64,000 nucleotides of DNA, from IMG/VR virus record IMGVR_UViG_3300030105_001626, positions 1-64,000 of that record, one strand, 5' to 3'. Origin of the DNA: a virus. The notes below the pieces were generated by a model that saw nothing but the letters and a program-made list of their open reading frames with translations, had not been told where the DNA came from and ran no database searches. Within the stretch, counting starts at the first letter, position 1, and each line of letters begins with the position of its first letter. Made by a program: the position numbers and the translations under genes. Positions 3,570 to 40,780 of the stretch are shown here, one piece after another.

Positions 3570-3802
3570 ATGAAAGTTCTCACTACTCCATATCCATATA
3601 ATACCGCCATCATTACATTTATTATGATAACACTTGGTTCACGCCAGAGACTTCCGATGTAAATCCAACCGATACCTGCTACAGTACCTAACCAGACATT
3701 TAGTGGGAACATTTCTAATGCAGATGCTAATGCACAACCGCAGGCAGCTATCGTAGATAACCACTTAACCCAAAATGCAAATGTTGATTGATTTGATATC
3801 AT
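3566..3802 (-). CDS. small membrane protein
   Basis: KW.ST...FPLN...G..GW...G..WRE.S...IN pattern; three TM segments. Confidence 0.65.
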   Translation of the reverse strand: MISNQSTFAFWVKWLSTIAACGCALASALEMFPLNVWLGTVAGIGWIYIGSLWREPSVIIINVMMAVLYGYGVVRTFI

Positions 3803-3820
3803 ATTACAAGGAGTATAACA

Positions 3821-4075
3821 CTATTTTGAGTGTTTTTGAGGCGAACTTTGGAGGCCGTAGGTGGATGGGTCTTGATGTAGAACCCAATTGACATAATCAA
3901 CAGCTAAATCTTCATCTTTAAAGTATTTTGTGATTACTTGCCCTGACAATATAGAGCCAACGAAGATAAGTATATTGCCTTTATAGTTAGAAAACTTAAT
4001 CCACCAATAATGTTTTACTATTGGCTTATATGTTCTCAATGAGATTTCAATATCTCTCTTGATATCTTCATTCAT
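3821..4075 (-). CDS. hypothetical protein
   Basis: ORF track. Confidence 0.55.
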   Translation of the reverse strand: MNEDIKRDIEISLRTYKPIVKHYWWIKFSNYKGNILIFVGSILSGQVITKYFKDEDLAVDYVNWVLHQDPSTYGLQSSPQKHSK

Positions 4076-20177: not shown

Positions 20178-20468
20178 TTAACAATTCCATCTTCGTAATG
20201 CTTTATTAATTGGTGAGTCCGGATTTCTAGCATTCTTTGGATTCGTCAATTTCTTTTTCATGCCCTTCATTCTTCTACAAAAAGATAATCGTCTTTTAGC
20301 ACGTTTACCTCCTGCTTTAGGTTTCTTCTCTGTCACAGCTGTCTTTAACTTTGAACCTGGGTTCTCACTGCGATATGCTTTAACTGCAGCTCTACTTAGG
20401 CCATCTGTTTTATCAGCTTTATTTATTTTCTGCCAATCTTCTTTAATGAATGTGGTTAGTGATTTCAA
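20178..20468 (-). CDS. conserved basic phage protein
   Basis: YRSENPGSKLKTAV, RRLSFCRRM.GM, ALRRWNC motifs. Confidence 0.75.
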   Translation of the reverse strand: MKSLTTFIKEDWQKINKADKTDGLSRAAVKAYRSENPGSKLKTAVTEKKPKAGGKRAKRRLSFCRRMKGMKKKLTNPKNARNPDSPINKALRRWNC

Positions 20469-22609
20469 CCTATTCCACCTCCACCCATACTTGTAATTCC
20501 TTTAAAGTTACCAAGTGCATTTCTTGCCTTCCATGTTGCTAATCTAATACCTTGATTATGTAATTTTTGGTTATTATTAGCAGATATTGATTCTATTCCA
20601 TCTGCTGTACCTTCTTGAGATACTGGGTCAATCTTATTTCCATCTGCAGAAACTGTAAATGGTTTTTTTGGTTTTGCTATTTTAACATCACCTTGCATTC
20701 CTTGTTTATCTTTTGCAACATCATCTGGAAATGCTTCATCTTTTGTCTTATTTATTTTACCTTGTGGTATTCTCTTTTTAGGTCCAAAGTTAGAATTAAA
20801 AGACATATTAGGGTCTTTACCCCAAGATTCAGGTGCGGCTGTATGACCTAATGACATACCAGCTTCTGGAAATCCAGGTGCAACAGATTCTTTTAATTCA
20901 ACACAATAACCAGGTCCTTTATCATTTAGATGAACCTTGCCTTGTATCTTATGAGCTTCTCGTGCAGCTGCAGCTCTAACTACAAACACCTTGCGTTTGC
21001 CGTTTTGCATAAGGTATTTAGTCATTCTTTTACTCTCAACCTTTTCAGTAAACATATCTTCAAATGATGCATTTAACTCTTCTTGCACTGAAGGTTGTTT
21101 GTTATCTGTAGTAACAGGAACTAGTGTATCATGAACTACACGATGAGATACTTTATTGTCTGTACCATATCTACCAAAGCCATAATAGTCTAATCCTAAT
21201 CTTCCAGCTTCTTCTTTTGCTTTTGAATTTGGATGAGGGTGTTTTCCAGAATCAGGCACTTTTGTTAGTGTATGTGATGTGTCTTTACCTTGTAATTCTC
21301 CAGCAATCCATGATTGTGCCACTTCATTTTCTGGTTTCTGTTCAATGAAATTACTAGCAAATTTAAATATCTCTTGCATTTCATCTTTCTTGCGTTTTAC
21401 GTCATCAGGACTTGATTTTCTTAAGTCTAGTGAATTATCAAATTCAACATAATTTTGACCAAACATTTCAGCTAATTTAGGTCTAGACCTTTGAACATGT
21501 TCCCATTTTGCTTTTCTGACTTCTTCTGGCACTGTACGACCGCCACTTTGGCCTCTTTCAATATTTCTTTCTGCTGATATATTATCTTCAGTATTAACCA
21601 TAACCATTGCAGAAGTATAACCTAACTTTTCAAGAGCATCTTTAATGCGAGATATCTTCTCAACGTCTTCGCCTGTGCCATTAATAATAAGACCATTTCG
21701 TCCCATTAAAGCAAGTTTCTGTTTTAGTTCTGTAATTGATTTGGCTTTGCCTCTCACTGCATCTCTTTTACCTTTTTCAGATATCTTATCTGACATGATT
21801 TTAGACATGTTATTTTTATCTAATAGATATTCAAATGCTTTATCTGAGTTTATTTCTGTTAATCCTAGTCCGTCTAATGTATTTGATAATACATAGTCTT
21901 TACCAGAACCAGGTCCACCTGCAAGAAACATTGCTTTGAATATTGCTTTATCATGTACACCTTCTATTAATATTTGTTCGAACTTGGTATCTATATCTTC
22001 TCTTACTCTCATACCACTCCTTAAATCTTTGTATAGTTCTCTTGCATGTTGGTCTGTTACATGCTTAGGAACGCCTTGTCTAAATTTATTGTAGTTGCCT
22101 GCGGTTGCATGACCTCTAAGTTTACTTGCAGACATTCCTGCAGTACCTTTTGCATCAGGGTCTCTAGCGCCAGCATTGTGTAATTTTATTTGTTTAAAAT
22201 TAAACATAGCACCTTTGTGTGTGCCATTATATTTGTTTAATAATCTTTTGAATTCTGGTATTCTATCGCCACCTGCAATCATATGCAAATGTGTGTTACC
22301 AGCTTTGTGTAATTTTCTCGCTTGGTGCAAAAAAGTAGGATGTTCTCTTGATGATGTTGTTATATTTGTTCTAGGGAAGAATCTCTTAGCGTGTTTTACT
22401 TTTTGTGCAGCTGTCAGAGGATTTGATTTTGCATCATTAGTATGTGATAATACAACATGATGAGTTGCTTTGTATCTTGCGGCTACACTTTTAACTTTAT
22501 CAACTAACTTGGCGTGACCTGTTGTAGGTGGTTGCAGACGACCAAATGCCATAGCGGCATGACGCTCTTGTGCTTCAACTATTACATCTATGAATTCTTT
22601 AAATTTCAT
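20465..22609 (-). CDS. cytidylyltransferase-like (HxGH-type) domain fused to a P-loop kinase domain
   Basis: FGRLQPPTTGH, AGGDR and MSASKLR, followed by FLAGGPGSGKD and RNIERG motifs. Confidence 0.85.
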   Translation of the reverse strand: MKFKEFIDVIVEAQERHAAMAFGRLQPPTTGHAKLVDKVKSVAARYKATHHVVLSHTNDAKSNPLTAAQKVKHAKRFFPRTNITTSSREHPTFLHQARKLHKAGNTHLHMIAGGDRIPEFKRLLNKYNGTHKGAMFNFKQIKLHNAGARDPDAKGTAGMSASKLRGHATAGNYNKFRQGVPKHVTDQHARELYKDLRSGMRVREDIDTKFEQILIEGVHDKAIFKAMFLAGGPGSGKDYVLSNTLDGLGLTEINSDKAFEYLLDKNNMSKIMSDKISEKGKRDAVRGKAKSITELKQKLALMGRNGLIINGTGEDVEKISRIKDALEKLGYTSAMVMVNTEDNISAERNIERGQSGGRTVPEEVRKAKWEHVQRSRPKLAEMFGQNYVEFDNSLDLRKSSPDDVKRKKDEMQEIFKFASNFIEQKPENEVAQSWIAGELQGKDTSHTLTKVPDSGKHPHPNSKAKEEAGRLGLDYYGFGRYGTDNKVSHRVVHDTLVPVTTDNKQPSVQEELNASFEDMFTEKVESKRMTKYLMQNGKRKVFVVRAAAAREAHKIQGKVHLNDKGPGYCVELKESVAPGFPEAGMSLGHTAAPESWGKDPNMSFNSNFGPKKRIPQGKINKTKDEAFPDDVAKDKQGMQGDVKIAKPKKPFTVSADGNKIDPVSQEGTADGIESISANNNQKLHNQGIRLATWKARNALGNFKGITSMGGGGIG

Positions 22610-22646
22610 TCCCGCCTCTGCAGCAGTTAGTTAATGTGGTATTTAG

Positions 22647-22654
22647 TATTTATA
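22647..22654 (-). promoter_or_regulatory. T4-type late promoter
   Basis: TATAAATA with a tandem CTAAATA at 22640-22646. Confidence 0.7.
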
Positions 22655-22670
22655 CCTTTTTGGAGTGAAA

Positions 22671-23309
22671 TTATTCAGCTACAATAAAGGCATTACCAAA
22701 TGGGTGTTCTCCTGTCCAATTTTCTTTTAGATGGCCATATTCATAATCAAAATACTTAATTTTAAACCCAGCTTCTACGATAGTGGTTAACCACCATTCT
22801 TCTGATTCTCTAGTAACATGTGTGATATCCATTTCATACTCACGAATACGATATCTCTCGCCATCACCTAAAGGAACTGCAACAAATATAGATTTGCATC
22901 TAGCTCTTAATGATTTTAATACAGATAGTATTTCATCTTTTGGTATATGTTCTAATACATCTTTAGCAATGATTAAGTCCCAACCACCTTTGATATCTTC
23001 TACTGCTTCAATTTTAGATACATAATCTTTAACTTTTGGGTGGCACTTTTCAACTGCATATTCAGATACATCGACACCAAATGCTTCTTTACCTAATAAT
23101 CTTAAGGCATGAACCATAAATCCTTTAGCACAACCAAAATCTAATACATTTTTAAATTCAATGTTGTTTATAATAGATGAGGCTTCACGAATACTTCTTT
23201 CTGGCATCCAACGATATTGTTCATAAGCACTAACTCTCTTACGGACTCCATCTTCATAGTAATCTTCATTAAAAACTTCATATTTTTGTGTCTTATCAAT
23301 ATAACTCAT
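22671..23309 (-). CDS. class I SAM-dependent methyltransferase
   Basis: VLDFGCAKG, GVDVS, DVLEHI motifs. Confidence 0.9.
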   Translation of the reverse strand: MSYIDKTQKYEVFNEDYYEDGVRKRVSAYEQYRWMPERSIREASSIINNIEFKNVLDFGCAKGFMVHALRLLGKEAFGVDVSEYAVEKCHPKVKDYVSKIEAVEDIKGGWDLIIAKDVLEHIPKDEILSVLKSLRARCKSIFVAVPLGDGERYRIREYEMDITHVTRESEEWWLTTIVEAGFKIKYFDYEYGHLKENWTGEHPFGNAFIVAE

Positions 23310-23317
23310 AATATCCT

Positions 23318-24433
23318 TTAAGCAAATTCATTGTGTCGTGTTGGCATTAAAACATCATCTATTAATTCATTTTGCATTGCATACTTACAGTATGAACAAT
23401 CGTGTTGTCTTGTAAAGTTATCTACACCTTCTTGTGTGTTATAGAACTCTGTAATACCTTCAATATCACATAGTTTAAATTCATCATTCACACGATATAG
23501 ATTTTCTGGTGCTAATTCTGCTGATGGACAAACATAAACATTTCCATCAGTGAATACAAATGGTTTAACACCGTGCATATAACAATTACTATTTCTTCTC
23601 TCGCCTTTGAAGTTGAAATCCGATAAGAAAGCGTATTGCAATTTACCAAATTCTTTTTCGTGGACTTTTATTAGACTTCTTATTTTTTCAATGTCTTGTT
23701 CTACAATCTTTGTTGCTTTGATAGCATTGAAAGCTATTCTAGTCGGTATTTTATTTTCTTCTACCCACATTAACATCTTTAAGAAGTTCTCTTCTTTATA
23801 ATCATTTGATTTTAGTCTTCTTGCTTTATCATCGGACCATTCACCAGTTACATTTGGATTAGTTGATGTCTCCATTGCTCCGTCCCAAACATAGGCAGCT
23901 GAAATCTCGACATCATCAAGACCATCAAAAACTTCAAGATTATATTCATAAGGTTTTTCTTCGTCCCATGCATACATGCCCAATCTTACCCATGAAAACA
24001 TATGCCAAGTCTTTATCTTTTTAAGTAAAGAACCATTTGTGCATATACCAATCTTCATACCTTTGTTGTAAGCGTATTCCACTACTTCATCTAATTTTGG
24101 ATGAAGAGTCGGTTCACCTCCGCCAGTAAATTCTAATCCCTCTGCACCAAGAGCGTGAAATTGGTCAATCGCAGACTTCATCTGGTCAACTGTAAGCATT
24201 TCTTTCATTGCTCTATTGGCAAAACAACAGAATGAACATGTGAGATTACAAGGATTACATGGTGACATGTGAATCATTATTGGTTTAGGTTTCTTACCTT
24301 GTTGTAAGTCGACCAATCTATCCATATGTTTTAGTAATTTGCTTGTATTACTAGAATAGCTTCGCCCTTTAATTTGAGCATCATTATCTGATTTTTTCTT
24401 TACAAATTTTATTGTTTGTGTCAAATCAATCAA
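23318..24433 (-). CDS. radical SAM protein with C-terminal SPASM/twitch-like Cys cluster
   Basis: CNLTCSFC, GGGEPTL, TNG, DGNVYVC, CSYC motifs. Confidence 0.92.
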   Translation of the reverse strand: MIDLTQTIKFVKKKSDNDAQIKGRSYSSNTSKLLKHMDRLVDLQQGKKPKPIMIHMSPCNPCNLTCSFCCFANRAMKEMLTVDQMKSAIDQFHALGAEGLEFTGGGEPTLHPKLDEVVEYAYNKGMKIGICTNGSLLKKIKTWHMFSWVRLGMYAWDEEKPYEYNLEVFDGLDDVEISAAYVWDGAMETSTNPNVTGEWSDDKARRLKSNDYKEENFLKMLMWVEENKIPTRIAFNAIKATKIVEQDIEKIRSLIKVHEKEFGKLQYAFLSDFNFKGERRNSNCYMHGVKPFVFTDGNVYVCPSAELAPENLYRVNDEFKLCDIEGITEFYNTQEGVDNFTRQHDCSYCKYAMQNELIDDVLMPTRHNEFA

Positions 24434-25226
24434 TCCTTAATTCATCAGATTCTCTAAGTGTAACTTCGTGTAATTTATATTCTGGTTCAAAACTCTTAAT
24501 ATCTTCATCATAAACTTCTTTCATGAATTTAGGATAAACATCAGAGAATATATGTGCCATTTCTTTATTTGCATCTGTAACATCATAGGTTGTGTGTCTA
24601 CCTGGATGATACATTGAAGCTGCATGTATTACACCACATTTTTCTTTAGTGATTGAGGATAATATCCAATCAAATCCATATCCACTTTTTACGTCATGAT
24701 ATTCCATAAACTTTAATATTTTAGGTATCAGTGATGAATGAATAAACACTGCCATGCCTTCATTAAAATTAGTTAAACTATATTTCATTGAAGTATCTTG
24801 ATGAAGTATATTGTGACTACACTCTGAACCATGCATTGTAGATAACTGAAATATTTTAATATTTTCTTCTTTAGCAATCTCTAAACCACGATTCACATTT
24901 TTAATGTCAGTAACTAAGTCATCGTCCCAAAAACCAATATATTCATAGTCACGATAATCATAAGTCTCAAGAAAATGTTTTACCATCTCCCACTTAAATC
25001 CTGTGTCTTTTTGGATTATATCATAACTATCATCTTCAACCGGACAATCATTGTAACTATAAGCTACAACTGAATAGTCTCTTTCTTCTCCTTTTGTAGA
25101 ACGCCAATGATTATCTTTATCATAATTCTCATGATAGTTTAGTGGTATTCCTACTGGAACAACTATTACATTCTTAGAATTTATGAATGTTTCTGCACCT
25201 GGTTTAGGCTGTTTCATTTTGTTCAT
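24426..25226 (-). CDS. GT-A fold glycosyltransferase-like protein (DUF707-like)
   Basis: YEYIGFWDDDL DxD motif; TNFNE.M; SGYGFDW. Confidence 0.7.
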   Translation of the reverse strand: MNKMKQPKPGAETFINSKNVIVVPVGIPLNYHENYDKDNHWRSTKGEERDYSVVAYSYNDCPVEDDSYDIIQKDTGFKWEMVKHFLETYDYRDYEYIGFWDDDLVTDIKNVNRGLEIAKEENIKIFQLSTMHGSECSHNILHQDTSMKYSLTNFNEGMAVFIHSSLIPKILKFMEYHDVKSGYGFDWILSSITKEKCGVIHAASMYHPGRHTTYDVTDANKEMAHIFSDVYPKFMKEVYDEDIKSFEPEYKLHEVTLRESDELRID

Positions 25227-25936
25227 TTGTAGCTTCCACCTTTTGCAATAAATAAATTTGTATTAGTTTCAATAAGTTCATCTGTTATTGTGAATGGTGT
25301 CTTATAATCATTACTCTTGAAAAATTCTTTTGCGGCCATGTCATGGTTAATAAAAAACATACTATTCTTAGCAACCAAGTCCGCATCACTAGTTTTAGAT
25401 ATTTCATCTGATATATCTTTTTTATATTCTAGGCCATATTCATTAAATCTATCAATCCAATAATCTTTCGGTTTACAATTTACATGATGATGTCCTGGCT
25501 GACCAGGAACTGCAGCCGTACACCAGATATATTTTGCTTGCTTAAAGGTTGATATAAAGTTTTTGATGTATTTTTCTTCTACATGTTCTAAAAATTCAGT
25601 TGAATATGCCAAATCAAATGATTCAGTAGAGTTATATTCACCTAAAGTATAATCATGTATGTGTATATACTCTTTATTATTTTTGATTGTCTCATCACCA
25701 TCAACACCAATAGAATATATTCCAATATGGTTTGCGTACTCAACCATTCCGCCTGGTCCACATCCAATATCAATCATAGACTTTATATCATATTTTTGTT
25801 TAATTAAATCTAAGGTTGGTTTTAACATCGAGGTGAAATCATAATGTCCACCTAAGTGTGGTGGTAAAATAAATTGTTTATTTGCCATCTTTAAATTTCC
25901 TCTCAATAGATTCTTTCCATTCTGGTACTCTGTCAT
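25223..25936 (-). CDS. class I SAM-dependent methyltransferase (true start probably MANKQF)
   Basis: IDIGCGPG, GVDG, EFLEHV, PGQPGHHHVNC motifs. Confidence 0.88.
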   Translation of the reverse strand: MTEYQNGKNLLRGNLKMANKQFILPPHLGGHYDFTSMLKPTLDLIKQKYDIKSMIDIGCGPGGMVEYANHIGIYSIGVDGDETIKNNKEYIHIHDYTLGEYNSTESFDLAYSTEFLEHVEEKYIKNFISTFKQAKYIWCTAAVPGQPGHHHVNCKPKDYWIDRFNEYGLEYKKDISDEISKTSDADLVAKNSMFFINHDMAAKEFFKSNDYKTPFTITDELIETNTNLFIAKGGSYK

Positions 25937-27919: not shown

Positions 27920-29170
27920 TTATTTACTCCAATTTTTGGCAGCATTAAAATTAGATTGACTAAACTCTAATCTATCTACTAATTTAACTGCATTACCTTT
28001 TAAGTGGTCAACTGCAACGAAACCTTCTGGTGCAGTTATTCTATAACCTGAATCTGTTTTAATAAATGTTCTCGCTACTTGGTCTACTGATTGTAGTTTA
28101 TTAATTATCATCAGTTTAGCCTCAGTAACTCCATTTTGTATATCGAATATTCTTTTTAGTTCAACTGCATTATTACGGAAGAATCGCATCACTTCAGATT
28201 TCTTTAACTGGCGATTTCTTTTTGTTTCTGCTCGTTTAGCTTCTAATATCTCAGCATTCATTTGTTTTTCAACATCGAGAATGAGTTGTCTAGTATGTTG
28301 CATTGTATCTCGAATTGTTTGGCCTTCTCTAACTTTTTTATTATTGAATACTTTAATGTATTGTCTTATCACTGAATTGTCTTTAATTCTATTCATTACT
28401 GATGGACTTGCCTGTCTAAACAATTGACCAACATCAGACAATATTCTAGTGATTGCTTTAGTTTCTTGTATTGTAAATGTAGCTGTACCAGATGTATCAG
28501 TAAAGTCTGCATCACGAAACCAAACATCTTTAGTTGTACTTAAATTTTTAATATCTATATTGAAACTTGCTTTCATTTGTTCCATTGTTTGACCTGCATA
28601 TGAGGTATGAAATACAATTCCTACATGAGCAGCTCTCATACTACTGGCTAATTTTGAATCAGCTGGTACTGCATATGTAATAGTATTTGGTGTAAATGTA
28701 ATAAACTTTTCGCCTGAAATTGATTCAGTTCTTATATCACCTTTAGTAAACATCATATCACCTTGTAAGATGCCTTTGATACCAAGTTTTGGTAAATATC
28801 TTAATGATGTTTTTAGTTTCTTATTGAGACCTTCAGCAGGATGATTTTTATCTATATCTGCATTTGTATAATTTAGTTTAGCGTTCTTTGTAAAGACACT
28901 CTTTGTTCCAACAAAAAACTTTTTGTTCTCTGGATTAATACCAACAAATATTGCAGGAGCGCCGTCCCACTTTGTAGTGATATTAACTTTTGACGTAGAG
29001 TTTCCCGCCAACATATCTCTTAATGATTGTAAGAAGTTTATAGCTTCACGAGTACCTGCTACACCATTATCTAACACGATGTCTTCAAGATGTTCAAGAT
29101 GTAAATTCTTACCTGAACTAGCTTCAGTAAGAACTTCTATTTGTTTTATTTTATCATTAAATTTATACAT
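27920..29170 (-). CDS. ligase-fold nucleotidyltransferase-like protein
   Basis: Motif I TKWDGAP, III LQGD, IV PEGFV, V VKLVDR. Confidence 0.7.
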   Translation of the reverse strand: MYKFNDKIKQIEVLTEASSGKNLHLEHLEDIVLDNGVAGTREAINFLQSLRDMLAGNSTSKVNITTKWDGAPAIFVGINPENKKFFVGTKSVFTKNAKLNYTNADIDKNHPAEGLNKKLKTSLRYLPKLGIKGILQGDMMFTKGDIRTESISGEKFITFTPNTITYAVPADSKLASSMRAAHVGIVFHTSYAGQTMEQMKASFNIDIKNLSTTKDVWFRDADFTDTSGTATFTIQETKAITRILSDVGQLFRQASPSVMNRIKDNSVIRQYIKVFNNKKVREGQTIRDTMQHTRQLILDVEKQMNAEILEAKRAETKRNRQLKKSEVMRFFRNNAVELKRIFDIQNGVTEAKLMIINKLQSVDQVARTFIKTDSGYRITAPEGFVAVDHLKGNAVKLVDRLEFSQSNFNAAKNWSK

Positions 29171-39005: not shown

Positions 39006-39472
39006 AATATTTTCCTTGATTTATAATATTTTTTCATTCCTTCTGATATCTTAGTCTTTGTTTCGTCACTATGCCATTCTAGTTCTTTTGCCTTTTGATT
39101 AGCAACACGAGAGGCACGATTGTTTCTAGCGTGTTCGGCAGTTCTTACTTTACCACTTGCAGACTTAGACATTTTTCTTTTGGTCTCTTCAGAATGTTTT
39201 TTGCCAATCTTACTTGCAATCATTCTAGCTTTGCCTTCTGGTGACATTCTATTTTTCATACTCCCACCAATTGAGCGTGCCATGAAAAGCGCCTCGTCCT
39301 TATTCATTTGACCTTTTAGCATATGCCAGGCCATAAAATCTTCTTGTTTTCCATGTTGTTCGTATAATTTCTTATGAGCGAGACTATGGTCTTCAACTGA
39401 AAGTTCTATAAGATTGGATGGTTCGTCTGTTCCACCCATGTGCTTAGGTATTATGTGATGTTTATGTTTCAT
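39002..39472 (-). CDS. free-standing HNH homing endonuclease with NUMOD3 DNA-binding repeats
   Basis: HHIIPKHMGGTD..SNL..L...DH...H HNH core; GKKHSEETKRKMS and HSDETKTKISE NUMOD3 repeats; start reassigned to MKHK, downstream of the CTAAATA promoter. Confidence 0.88.
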   Translation of the reverse strand: MKHKHHIIPKHMGGTDEPSNLIELSVEDHSLAHKKLYEQHGKQEDFMAWHMLKGQMNKDEALFMARSIGGSMKNRMSPEGKARMIASKIGKKHSEETKRKMSKSASGKVRTAEHARNNRASRVANQKAKELEWHSDETKTKISEGMKKYYKSRKIL

Positions 39473-39477
39473 ACATC

Positions 39478-39504
39478 TATTTAGTAGCATCGTGAGTTCA
39501 AACC
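39478..39504 (-). promoter_or_regulatory. late-type promoter (CTAAATA) with adjacent putative endonuclease operator
   Basis: GGTTTGAACTCACGATG (39504-39488) matches the spliced pqqA junction GGTTTGAAGTGACTATG at 14/17 nt. Confidence 0.65.
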
Positions 39505-39520
39505 TAACTCTTTGCCCAAC

Positions 39521-39543
39521 AAAAAACCCTCTTGCGAGGGTTT
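39521..39543 (-). terminator. intrinsic terminator after pqqA
   Basis: AAACCCTC-GCAA-GAGGGTTT followed by TTTG; GNRA loop. Confidence 0.85.
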
Positions 39544-39605
39544 AATGATTTTACTATTCTGATAAAGCGTTTGTAATTTGTAACAACTTTATATATTGTG
39601 AATAA

Positions 39606-39955
39606 TTATCTATTCATAACATACATAGTCACTTCAACGTAGTGGTGGCAGGCGTTCCAGAGTATTCGTCTTTTTGCCTGTTGCCTTGTTATCGATGTGG
39701 CTCTTTATCCTCACCTTCAATATATCACTATATTGTCCAGACTATATCATCAAGACTTGTTGTCTTGCCGGGCACTCGTGTCATCTTCATCACTGTTCTA
39801 GTGGTATGATGTTAGTCGTTGAACCTTCTCATAATCCCTTATGAGCTTGGATGCTGATTGTCTCGAAAGATGTCCCAGCAGTTCACCCGGTTTTAATTGG
39901 GCCTAAATCAAATTAACCCAAAACGCATTTCAGTTGCTGATGGAGTTGTCCACAT
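39606..39955 (-). CDS. pqqA: pyrroloquinoline quinone precursor peptide PqqA, split gene: exon 1 39955-39916, exon 2 39637-39606
   Basis: Spliced product MWTTPSATEMRFGFEVTMYVMNR (23 aa) with E-x-x-x-Y core; AAGGA RBS; the unspliced frame stops at ...RFGLI*. Confidence 0.95.
39638..39915 (-). mobile_element. group I self-splicing intron without ORF (278 nt, IA-like)
   Basis: 5' exon ends in U; P1 UUGGGU/GCCCAA with U.G at the splice site; P GAACUGCUGGG; Q CAAUCAGCAUCC; R GGUUCAACGACUA; S GAUAUAGUC; P3 CCGGG/CCCGG; P8 CAAGAC/GUCUUG; P9 CAAUAUA-GUGA-UAUAUUG; terminal omega-G. Confidence 0.95.
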
Positions 39956-40062
39956 AGTATTGATTCCTTTTTAAAAAGTTATATTAAAGAACCAGGTCAA
40001 CAGAGAGTATTTCTACAAAGTCTGCCTTGAGATTTAACAAACAATTTCTATTTGTTAAAGGT

Positions 40063-40091
40063 ATTTTATACTACTTGACAGCTAAAAGCAA
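40063..40091 (-). promoter_or_regulatory. sigma70-type promoter of pqqA
   Basis: TTGCTT-N17-TAAAAT, about 100 nt upstream of the pqqA ATG. Confidence 0.55.
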
Positions 40092-40118
40092 TAGAGAAAA
40101 TCATTAAATTGTTCTAGA

Positions 40119-40583
40119 CTATTTTATTAGTCCTACCTTGTATACAGTTTTGCCATTTTCTTTCATAGCAGTTAAAGCTCTTTTACGGTTGCTACCATCT
40201 GTTTTGTGACTTACATGAACCCAACCAGAGTCATCAATACCTGGAGTATAAAACTCCAATATTACTTGGTCGAAGTCGAGGTTGTCTACAATATACTGAG
40301 CCAGGTCTGCATTGGCGACACCAGGACACTCTATGTCGGCAGCTTCACCGTGACAGTGTTGTGATTTAGATGAACCGCCTACTGCTTTGTTAAGTTCTGG
40401 ACCACGATATCCTGAATTGATTGTTGTTACGCCAAAATGGTCTCTGACCTTTTGCACAACATTATCGAATAAGGCTTTTGCATTTTCTAGATGACCATCA
40501 TCTGGAGTATTATCAATGTCCATTCGAATTGCTGTTTGGCTTTTAGTAAATTCTTGTAGTGTAAAGTTTTCAGATAGTTTCAA
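40119..40583 (-). CDS. peptidase M15 family (endolysin candidate)
   Basis: SGYR..LN.AVGG...SQH..GEAAD and WVHVS motifs. Confidence 0.9.
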   Translation of the reverse strand: MKLSENFTLQEFTKSQTAIRMDIDNTPDDGHLENAKALFDNVVQKVRDHFGVTTINSGYRGPELNKAVGGSSKSQHCHGEAADIECPGVANADLAQYIVDNLDFDQVILEFYTPGIDDSGWVHVSHKTDGSNRKRALTAMKENGKTVYKVGLIK

Positions 40584-40585
40584 TT

Positions 40586-40780
40586 TTATTCTCCCATTGC
40601 TTTAACCTTGCGGTTGCTTGTTCGAACGCCAGTAGCAAGTGCATCAACGATTGCGTTTTTAAAGACGTAATCTTTTGTGCCAGTCATACCACTTGACATT
40701 GTTTTAAATTGTTTGTGTAACTTGAAACTTGGACCAGTTTTTTTATGAGCCTTTTTTCTATAATCTATATCTGCCATCAT
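40586..40780 (-). CDS. small basic hypothetical protein
   Basis: ORF track; GGAGA RBS. Confidence 0.6.
   Translation of the reverse strand: MMADIDYRKKAHKKTGPSFKLHKQFKTMSSGMTGTKDYVFKNAIVDALATGVRTSNRKVKAMGE

Follow-up and report, generated by a model that had tools for sequence, protein, structure and literature searches.

The glutamate and tyrosine of the peptide PqqA are cross-linked to make the cofactor PQQ, and the splicing chemistry of group I introns is established for this intron class. The question addressed here is whether the two meet in an apparently ORF-free gap in the DNA of a phage. The initial annotation, which was made from the sequence alone, had proposed that this gap hides a pqqA gene split by a group I intron. 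We confirmed the presence of a pqqA gene divided by a complete group I intron, and the interpretation of the locus is supported by its sequence; its splicing and its function are predicted from comparison with related genes and introns.

The pqqA locus of an uncultured marine T4-like phage

The stretch of DNA that was analyzed (64,000 nucleotides, hereafter the window) covers the first 64 kb of a linear 77.6-kb IMG/VR virus record, which is estimated to be approximately 44% complete. It has a G+C content of 33.7% and carries nearly all of its genes on the minus strand. Its source is an uncultured marine T4-like phage, whose gp43 has at most 49% identity to that of any cultured phage. Around the pqqA gap, the genes are arranged in the order gp44 clamp loader, RegA, Hsp20, a 64-aa ORF, M15 endolysin, the gap itself, an HNH-NUMOD3 endonuclease, a MazG-like pyrophosphohydrolase, DUF6561 and gp43 DNA polymerase. 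The position of pqqA between the M15 endolysin and gp43 is the same as in the intron-less relatives L047, L044 and L027. The coordinates of the features at this locus are given in Table 1.

When the locus (39300-40700, including the intron) was sampled as words, 94-100% of them were present in each of 14 DNA runs from seawater, marine and sponge metagenomes. Because these words recur in so many runs, the intron-bearing locus is not an assembly artefact. Counting DNA and RNA together, 20 runs from 16 studies of marine samples, dated 2014-2025, hold the locus.

Elsewhere in the window, positions 20465-25936 of the minus strand encode a protein of 714 aa that has a kinase domain of the Zeta-toxin type, together with two SAM methyltransferases, a generic radical SAM enzyme and a DUF707 protein. 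This cluster may be a glycan or nucleotide-modification module, and it has no relation to PQQ synthesis. The radical SAM gene at 23318-24433 was considered as a candidate for PqqE and was rejected, as it scored 27 bits against a cut-off of 381.

Table 1. Features of the split pqqA gene, its intron and the flanking genes, in window positions.
Feature	Position	Strand	Remarks
M15 endolysin	40583-40119	-	Gene before the pqqA gap
Promoter-like block TTGCTT-N15-TATAAA upstream of pqqA	40091-40065	-	Conserved in syntenic intron-less relatives
Conserved 5'-UTR hairpin	40034-39993	-	GGCAGA ... UCUCUG stem; RNAalifold, 6 T4-like phage loci
Ribosome-binding site AAGGA	39969-39965	-	9 nt before ATG; read from sequence; AAGGAG at the same place in relatives
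pqqA exon 1	39955-39916	-	ATG, 13 codons and first base (T) of a Phe codon; last six bases UUGGGU are the P1 5' strand
Group I intron	39915-39638	-	278 nt, without ORF; terminal G at 39638
Intron P10 guide	39907-39903	-	
Intron P1 3' strand	39902-39897	-	GCCCAA, pairs with UUGGGU 39921-39916
Intron P3	39890-39884/39774-39768	-	
Intron P4	39880-39875/39857-39852	-	
Intron P5	39870-39861	-	UUCG loop
Intron P6/P6a	39851-39824	-	GGGA loop
Intron P7	39817-39813/39744-39740	-	
Intron P7.1/7.2 region	39812-39777	-	36-nt block between P7 and P3'
Intron P8	39766-39752	-	
Intron P9	39735-39718	-	GUGA loop
Intron P9 extension	39717-39644	-	
pqqA exon 2	39637-39606	-	TT (last two Phe bases), 9 codons E-V-T-M-Y-V-M-N-R, TAA; no other segment of the window matches the junction query as well
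Predicted ligated exon junction	...UUUUGGGU joined to UUGAAGUGAC...	-	Expected from the exon borders
Intrinsic terminator after pqqA	39543-39518	-	8-bp G+C-rich stem, 4-nt loop, T-run
pqqA-junction-like 20-mer	39504-39485	-	Between terminator and HNH start; 16/20 identical to the joined exon junction
Free-standing HNH-NUMOD3 homing endonuclease gene	39490-39002	-	Likely true start 39469; Pfam HNH, NUMOD3; PHROG 655, 76 bits

Two exons join into a complete pqqA reading frame

When the two exons are joined, they form a 72-nt frame of 23 codons, with the intron placed after the first base of codon 14 and with Glu15 and Tyr19 in the E-x-x-x-Y arrangement. This is the 23-aa PqqA that the initial annotation had expected of the spliced message. 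Its expectation for the unspliced RNA was also borne out: the frame starting at ATG 39955 encodes 13 PqqA-like residues and reaches a stop two codons past Gly13, before the E-x-x-x-Y core. The joined frame aligned without a gap to a contiguous ORF of the Methylophilaceae phage P19250A, with 65 of 72 nt and 21 of 23 aa identical; five of the codon differences were synonymous and two were conservative. This alignment, together with the end of similarity at 39915 described below, upheld the exon and intron borders that had been drawn for the locus.

The assignment to the PqqA family was examined with profile scores for exon 1 alone and for contiguous ORFs that are identical to the joined product at 21-22 of 23 residues. 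In a search of the genome to which the window belongs, exon 1 alone scored 19.4 bits with Pfam PqqA over model positions 1-13 of 19. The P19250A ORF scored 40.3 bits with PF08042 (cut-off, 21.1) and 38.8 bits with TIGR02107. An ORF of contig L010, which equals the joined product over residues 1-22, scored 41.3 bits with PF08042 over all 19 model positions, in agreement with the claimed family membership.

A degenerate exon 1 pattern matched more than 120 viral and more than 120 bacterial contigs. All 119 complete viral copies that were retrieved contained an uninterrupted 23-codon pqqA, and pqqA was likewise uninterrupted in all 123 complete bacterial copies. Nearly all of the bacterial matches were from Methylophilaceae (Methylotenera, Methylophilus, Methylobacillus and Ca. 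Methylopumilus). In nucleotide alignments of the intron-less loci to the window, every one ended at 39915. The closest syntenic relatives (L047, L053, L044 and L027) carry pqqA between endolysin and gp43, and have neither the intron nor the HNH gene. As 240 uninterrupted pqqA genes can be aligned with the joined frame over its entire length and the similarity breaks at 39915, sequence comparison confirms the split-gene assignment far beyond chance.

In P19250A, the pqqA gene (KX815270.1, complement of 28082-28153; L001, 2515-2586) is intact, has 23 codons and carries no GenBank annotation. In most of the 119 IMG/VR pqqA loci, the gene is likewise unannotated and lies in 'intergenic' DNA.

Signals flanking the split gene

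The split gene had been described as having its own promoter, ribosome-binding site and terminator. The ribosome-binding site and the terminator were found (Table 1), whereas the promoter was recovered only in part: a scan for the sigma-70 consensus detected no promoter between 39956 and 40118, and a conserved promoter-like block lies at 40091-40065. The -10 element of this block reads TGnTATAAT in the intron-less relatives L047, L053 and L044. A 160-nt region upstream of pqqA is 74-85% conserved in T4-like relatives, and the hairpin that RNAalifold predicted within the leaders of six T4-like phage loci has 13 pairs, 5 of which show compensatory changes. Its motif, CTCAAG[GT]NAGAC, precedes pqqA in 6 of 115 viral loci and in none of 118 bacterial ones. 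The upstream block and the hairpin (39993-40091) may represent a phage-specific leader or regulatory RNA.

The intervening sequence has a complete group I core

The claim of a complete group I core was examined with a covariance model and was sustained. Rfam model RF00028 matched positions 39718-39985(-) with 65.3 bits, the gathering score being 50 (E values of 2e-16 to 7e-18 in a focused scan and a whole-genome search), and P1 with its U.G pair, P3 to P9 and the terminal G were all present. The helices, derived partly from the model alignment and partly by hand, contain only standard or G-U pairs (P1, 6 bp; P3, 7; P4, 6; P5, 3; P6/P6a, 9; P7, 5; P8, 5; P9, 7). In P1, UUGGGU/GCCCAA forms six of six pairs, with the U.G pair at the 5' cut. 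The P10 helix that had been suggested between the guide and the first bases of exon 2 (UUGAA/UUUAG) has five pairs, two of which are wobble pairs, and it is kept in a second intron-bearing allele, L253 (see below). The minimum-free-energy fold of the intron was no better than those of shuffled sequences (z = -1.48). The intron is approximately four times longer than the coding sequence that it interrupts, because the latter is only 72 nt long.

The nearest ribozyme relatives are introns in the DNA polymerase genes of Bacillus phages of the Bastillevirinae (the I-BasI intron), with 81-82% identity over 88-89 nt from P4' to P3'. Relative to a Bacillus phage DNA polymerase intron, there are eight compensatory pairs: three in P3, two in P5 and three in P6a. 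Like the Bastillevirinae introns, the pqqA intron has no P2 between P1 and P3 and has a block between P7 and P3'. This 36-nt block (39812-39777) occupies the P7.1/P7.2 position of IA introns and is conserved with the Bastillevirinae IA-type introns, its helices being ambiguous. In a survey, most Bastillevirinae DNA polymerase introns fell into IA subgroups (PMC11878797). The pqqA intron is probably of the IA type. The Bastillevirinae introns differ in lying in a large replication gene and in having an HNH gene inside the intron, whereas the intron described here interrupts pqqA, has no ORF and comes from a phage that differs in family and habitat.

A scan of the whole window (1-64000) with Rfam gathering filters returned no matches, and the same model gave 65 bits when the region was scanned alone or by genome search. 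Since both of these searches recovered the intron, the empty result of the whole-window scan was a filter miss. A tRNA gene split by the intron was ruled out, as ARAGORN found none.

Comparison of intron-bearing alleles

A search of IMG/VR with the HNH protein found a second intron-bearing pqqA allele, L253, which scored 65.5 bits with RF00028. Its intron is 231 nt long, compared to 278 nt in the window; exon 1 is identical and exon 2 is 32 nt long. The intron cores (intron positions ~14-180) are identical, while in L253 the P1 loop is 2 nt shorter and the 3' extension is 47 nt shorter. P9 of L253 contains five pair changes relative to the window, all of them compensated, and has the same GUGA loop. 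Both introns terminate in G directly before TTGAAGTGAC, and the first ten bases of exon 2 are shared. Exon 2 differs at 4 of 32 nt, in three codons, and all of the differences are synonymous, so that the product is identical, whereas the spacer after exon 2 is 69% identical and the HNH genes are 65% identical. In both intron-bearing alleles, the Gly codon that precedes the splice site is GGG, the last G of which pairs with the guide sequence; none of the 240 uninterrupted alleles has GGG there.

That all four exon 2 differences are synonymous speaks for a split gene that is both spliced and translated. Taken together with the shared exon 1, the terminal G of both introns, the compensated helices and the GGG codon, these differences fix both splice sites and show selection on the helices and on the split reading frame. 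Short of experiment, this comparison of alleles is the best evidence at hand, and it argues that the intron splices and that the peptide is made.

A third intron haplotype, represented by L124 and by contigs from RNA libraries, has P8 replaced by a different 7-bp hairpin. L124 is 100% identical to the window up to P8 and then differs, and this fragment ends in the variant P8. The window and L253 share 92-100% identity on the left of P9, and this falls to 65-69% on the right of exon 2. The divergence of L124 at P8 and the drop in identity to L253 therefore point to recombination breakpoints inside the intron, with at least three intron haplotypes co-circulating. When IMG/VR was scanned with the exon 1/intron junction pattern, L124 alone matched; patterns for the R/P7.1 core, for the 3' splice site plus exon 2 and for the variant P8 gave no matches there. 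Scans of metagenomes for locus patterns yielded no matches and then two chance matches (L125 and L126).

RNA data

Transcripts were sought in the Logan contigs of four metatranscriptome runs, which cover the locus in part, several bins being without cover. No ligated exons of the window allele were seen within this partial cover. Two contigs (X18 record 10 and X16 record 5) cross the 5' splice site unspliced, and could be derived from precursor RNA or from carried-over DNA. A third (X17 record 8) is 100% identical to the window over 39915-40136 and continues into a 24-nt tail that resembles exon 2. The tail shows five differences from exon 2 of the window and exactly matches the allele carried by L249, an unrelated phage contig. 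This contig may be chimeric, or may represent an intron-less relative or a spliced variant. Because its exon 2 belongs to another allele, it does not count as evidence of splicing.

An HNH endonuclease gene is linked to pqqA

The HNH gene starts 116-137 nt after exon 2, past the pqqA terminator. L253 has the same arrangement, and its HNH protein is 55% identical to that of the window. HNH genes adjoin pqqA at six loci. Among the IMG/VR relatives of the HNH protein that have visible flanks, the closest ones all adjoin pqqA (L251, L253, L261, L266 and L051; identities, in descending order, of 56%, 55%, 40%, 40% and 37%). Of these, L253 is intron-bearing, and L051, L251, L266 and L261 are intron-less.

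The four intron-less alleles next to an HNH gene all have Leu in place of Met (E-V-T-L-Y), whereas Met is present in 237 of 240 other copies. Relative to the other viral copies, of which 2 of 116 have Leu, the association has a Fisher probability of 1.7e-6, a value that ignores relatedness and is inflated by shared descent. None of approximately 120 complete bacterial pqqA copies has Leu. Where the HNH-adjacent Leu codons could be read (L051, L251 and L261), they were CTT or CTA. Two Leu alleles without an HNH neighbor (L007 and L043) have TTA, making three Leu codons in all. The Met codon lies 12-14 nt from the intron insertion site, and Met is kept in both intron-bearing alleles. This linkage of Leu to the HNH gene, together with the Met of the intron-bearing alleles, is the pattern expected if the HNH endonuclease recognizes the intron-less, Met-type junction and its carriers escape by a change of target or by the intron.

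The junction-like 20-mer upstream of the HNH gene is weak evidence when taken alone, since 1.7% of window segments score as high. A similar motif is found at the same place in L051 (1673-1700, with an 11-nt exact match to its own pqqA) and in L253 (1436-1460, with an 11-nt exact match to the joined junction). The motif is thus common to three divergent HNH-bearing loci, and could serve the endonuclease as an operator or be what remains of its target site. The L051 contig also contains a permuted tmRNA (3656-4072; RF04321, 81 bits), approximately 2 kb downstream of its pqqA.

From these associations, the intron is probably maintained, and probably spreads, together with the downstream HNH gene by collaborative homing. 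A fuller account would make pqqA, a very small and nearly invariant gene that many phages have in common with their Methylophilaceae hosts, the target of a homing system, in which the HNH endonuclease cuts the intron-less, Met-type junction, its carriers are protected either by the ribozyme that splits the gene or by the Met-to-Leu change, and the junction-like motif is an operator or target relic. We put this account forward tentatively, at somewhat less than even likelihood.

Host and cofactor synthesis

The type of pqqA sequence found in the window occurs almost only in Methylophilaceae genomes. Because of this and of the marine source, the host is most likely a marine member of the Methylophilaceae, of the OM43 type. 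In the 77.6-kb record (approximately 44% complete), no pqqB, pqqC, pqqD or pqqE was found, although the negative result for pqqC carries little weight because its control had no match anywhere either, and no PQQ-dependent dehydrogenase (PQQ_2 repeat) was found. The peptide would therefore need the enzymes of the host, as would other phage copies.

The initial annotation had called pqqA an auxiliary metabolic gene in this phage. Such a role is the likely one here and agrees with other phages; phage pqqA itself is already published (PMC7678222) and is common in IMG/VR.

Discussion

As a whole, the locus is best explained as a pqqA gene of a marine T4-like phage that is interrupted by an ORF-less intron, probably of the IA type, whose spliced product would feed PQQ synthesis in the host and whose intron would spread in linkage with the HNH gene; we hold this explanation to be highly probable. 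The primary transcript would fold into the ribozyme, and in the P1 helix (UUGGGU/GCCCAA) guanosine would attack after the U. Exon 1, once released, would in turn attack after the terminal G of the intron to give a ligated message, encoding a 23-residue PqqA with a Glu and a Tyr that could be cross-linked. The phage peptide would feed PqqB-E of the host and so lead to more PQQ for PQQ-dependent methanol dehydrogenase. The cut made by the HNH endonuclease most likely lies in intron-less pqqA, close to the site of insertion, with collaborative homing as the consequence.

It might be argued that the intron is a dead insertion that does not splice, and that pqqA is a pseudogene which looks intact as the insertion is recent. 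The lack of spliced RNA of the window allele in the contigs of the four RNA runs would fit such a history, and a very recent spread could account for a core that is 100% identical in the window and in L253. Yet the haplotypes differ by the fully compensated P9, the swapped P8 hairpin and the 47-nt indel near the 3' end, and the intron has therefore diverged while its helices were kept. Moreover, exon 2 has accumulated only synonymous changes beside a spacer that is 69% identical, and the allele has persisted in runs that span 2014-2025 and several studies. We thus regard a dead intron as very improbable. Nearly as improbable is the suggestion that the PqqA-like peptide is not a cofactor precursor at all, and serves as a decoy or inhibitor of PqqD/PqqE of the host or has no metabolic role. 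The 77.6-kb record, in which neither pqqB-E nor a PQQ-dependent dehydrogenase was found, is compatible with this suggestion. However, the peptide is identical to bacterial Methylophilaceae PqqA at 21-22 of 23 residues, including Glu15 and Tyr19, intact pqqA copies are present in more than 119 viral contigs, and published phages from Lake Baikal carry pqqA together with methanol dehydrogenase (PMC7678222).

An alternative with more weight, which we nevertheless consider unlikely, concerns the HNH gene: the intron would splice but would be a selfish passenger unrelated to the endonuclease, which would target another site and adjoin pqqA through the mosaicism of phage genomes. Among 80 HNH relatives that were retrieved, 76 have no pqqA in the retrieved flanks (a few of these, e.g., L252, are cut at a contig end), and the junction-like motif of the window has only weak significance by itself. 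Against an unrelated endonuclease stand the best HNH relatives with visible flanks, all of which are next to pqqA, and the closest syntenic relatives, which lack the intron and the HNH gene together. The rare Met-to-Leu change, so close to the insertion site and found in the HNH-adjacent intron-less alleles, also speaks for a connection between the endonuclease and pqqA.

A phage group I intron with a neighboring homing endonuclease is a well-known kind of arrangement; as far as we have searched, its presence in so small a host gene is unprecedented. The psbA gene of cyanophage S-PM2 has a group I intron and an adjacent free-standing endonuclease gene, F-CphI (Zeng, Bonocora and Shub 2009, as summarized in PMC3984707), and the same summary describes collaborative homing for cyanophage psbA and phage PhiI. 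The pqqA locus resembles S-PM2 psbA in that a free-standing homing endonuclease gene adjoins the intron-bearing gene and in that presence of the intron varies among relatives. Unlike S-PM2 psbA, the interrupted gene here is a 72-nt gene for a peptide precursor, the endonuclease is of the HNH-NUMOD3 type, and homing is suggested by linkage. A further difference is that the HNH-linked intron-less alleles carry the Met-to-Leu change as an apparent alternative protection.

T4-like Methylophilaceae phages from Lake Baikal (VP_266; Coutinho et al. 2020) were reported to carry pqqA, which was proposed to be a helper gene that assists PQQ-dependent oxidation of methanol (PMC7678222). Like the window phage, VP_266 is a T4-like phage with a stand-alone pqqA and a G+C content of approximately 34-35%. 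In contrast, the VP_266 pqqA is uninterrupted, PMC7678222 mentions no intron or endonuclease, and the window phage is marine. P19250A, whose pqqA is so similar to the joined frame of the window (21/23 aa, 65/72 nt), differs from the window phage in having a contiguous gene with no HNH neighbor, and in being a small 38.7-kb phage of another type. In the literature found for pqqA, and in the titles and abstracts of work on RiPP-type precursor genes, we found no account of a group I intron in either, which agrees with the statement in the initial annotation that no intron in a RiPP-type precursor gene was known.

The present locus adds a gene for a cofactor-precursor peptide to the short list of phage genes that host group I introns and, as far as we have searched, its intron is the first one reported in a RiPP-type precursor gene. 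The split pqqA is a concrete case of an auxiliary metabolic gene that is invisible to gene callers, and the failure of the whole-contig Rfam scan is a practical warning for surveys of introns in phage contigs. Because the coding sequence is 72 nt long and split, and because the intron is missed by a standard whole-contig Rfam scan, surveys of viral PQQ and methanol metabolism in the ocean will undercount pqqA. The set of alleles that was found (split by the intron, Leu variant with an HNH neighbor, and plain Met type) provides a compact and testable system of an endonuclease and an ORF-less intron that share a target. If the homing account is true, the intron/HNH pair could serve as a weapon in competition with co-infecting phages, and it might even reach the pqqA copies of the host.
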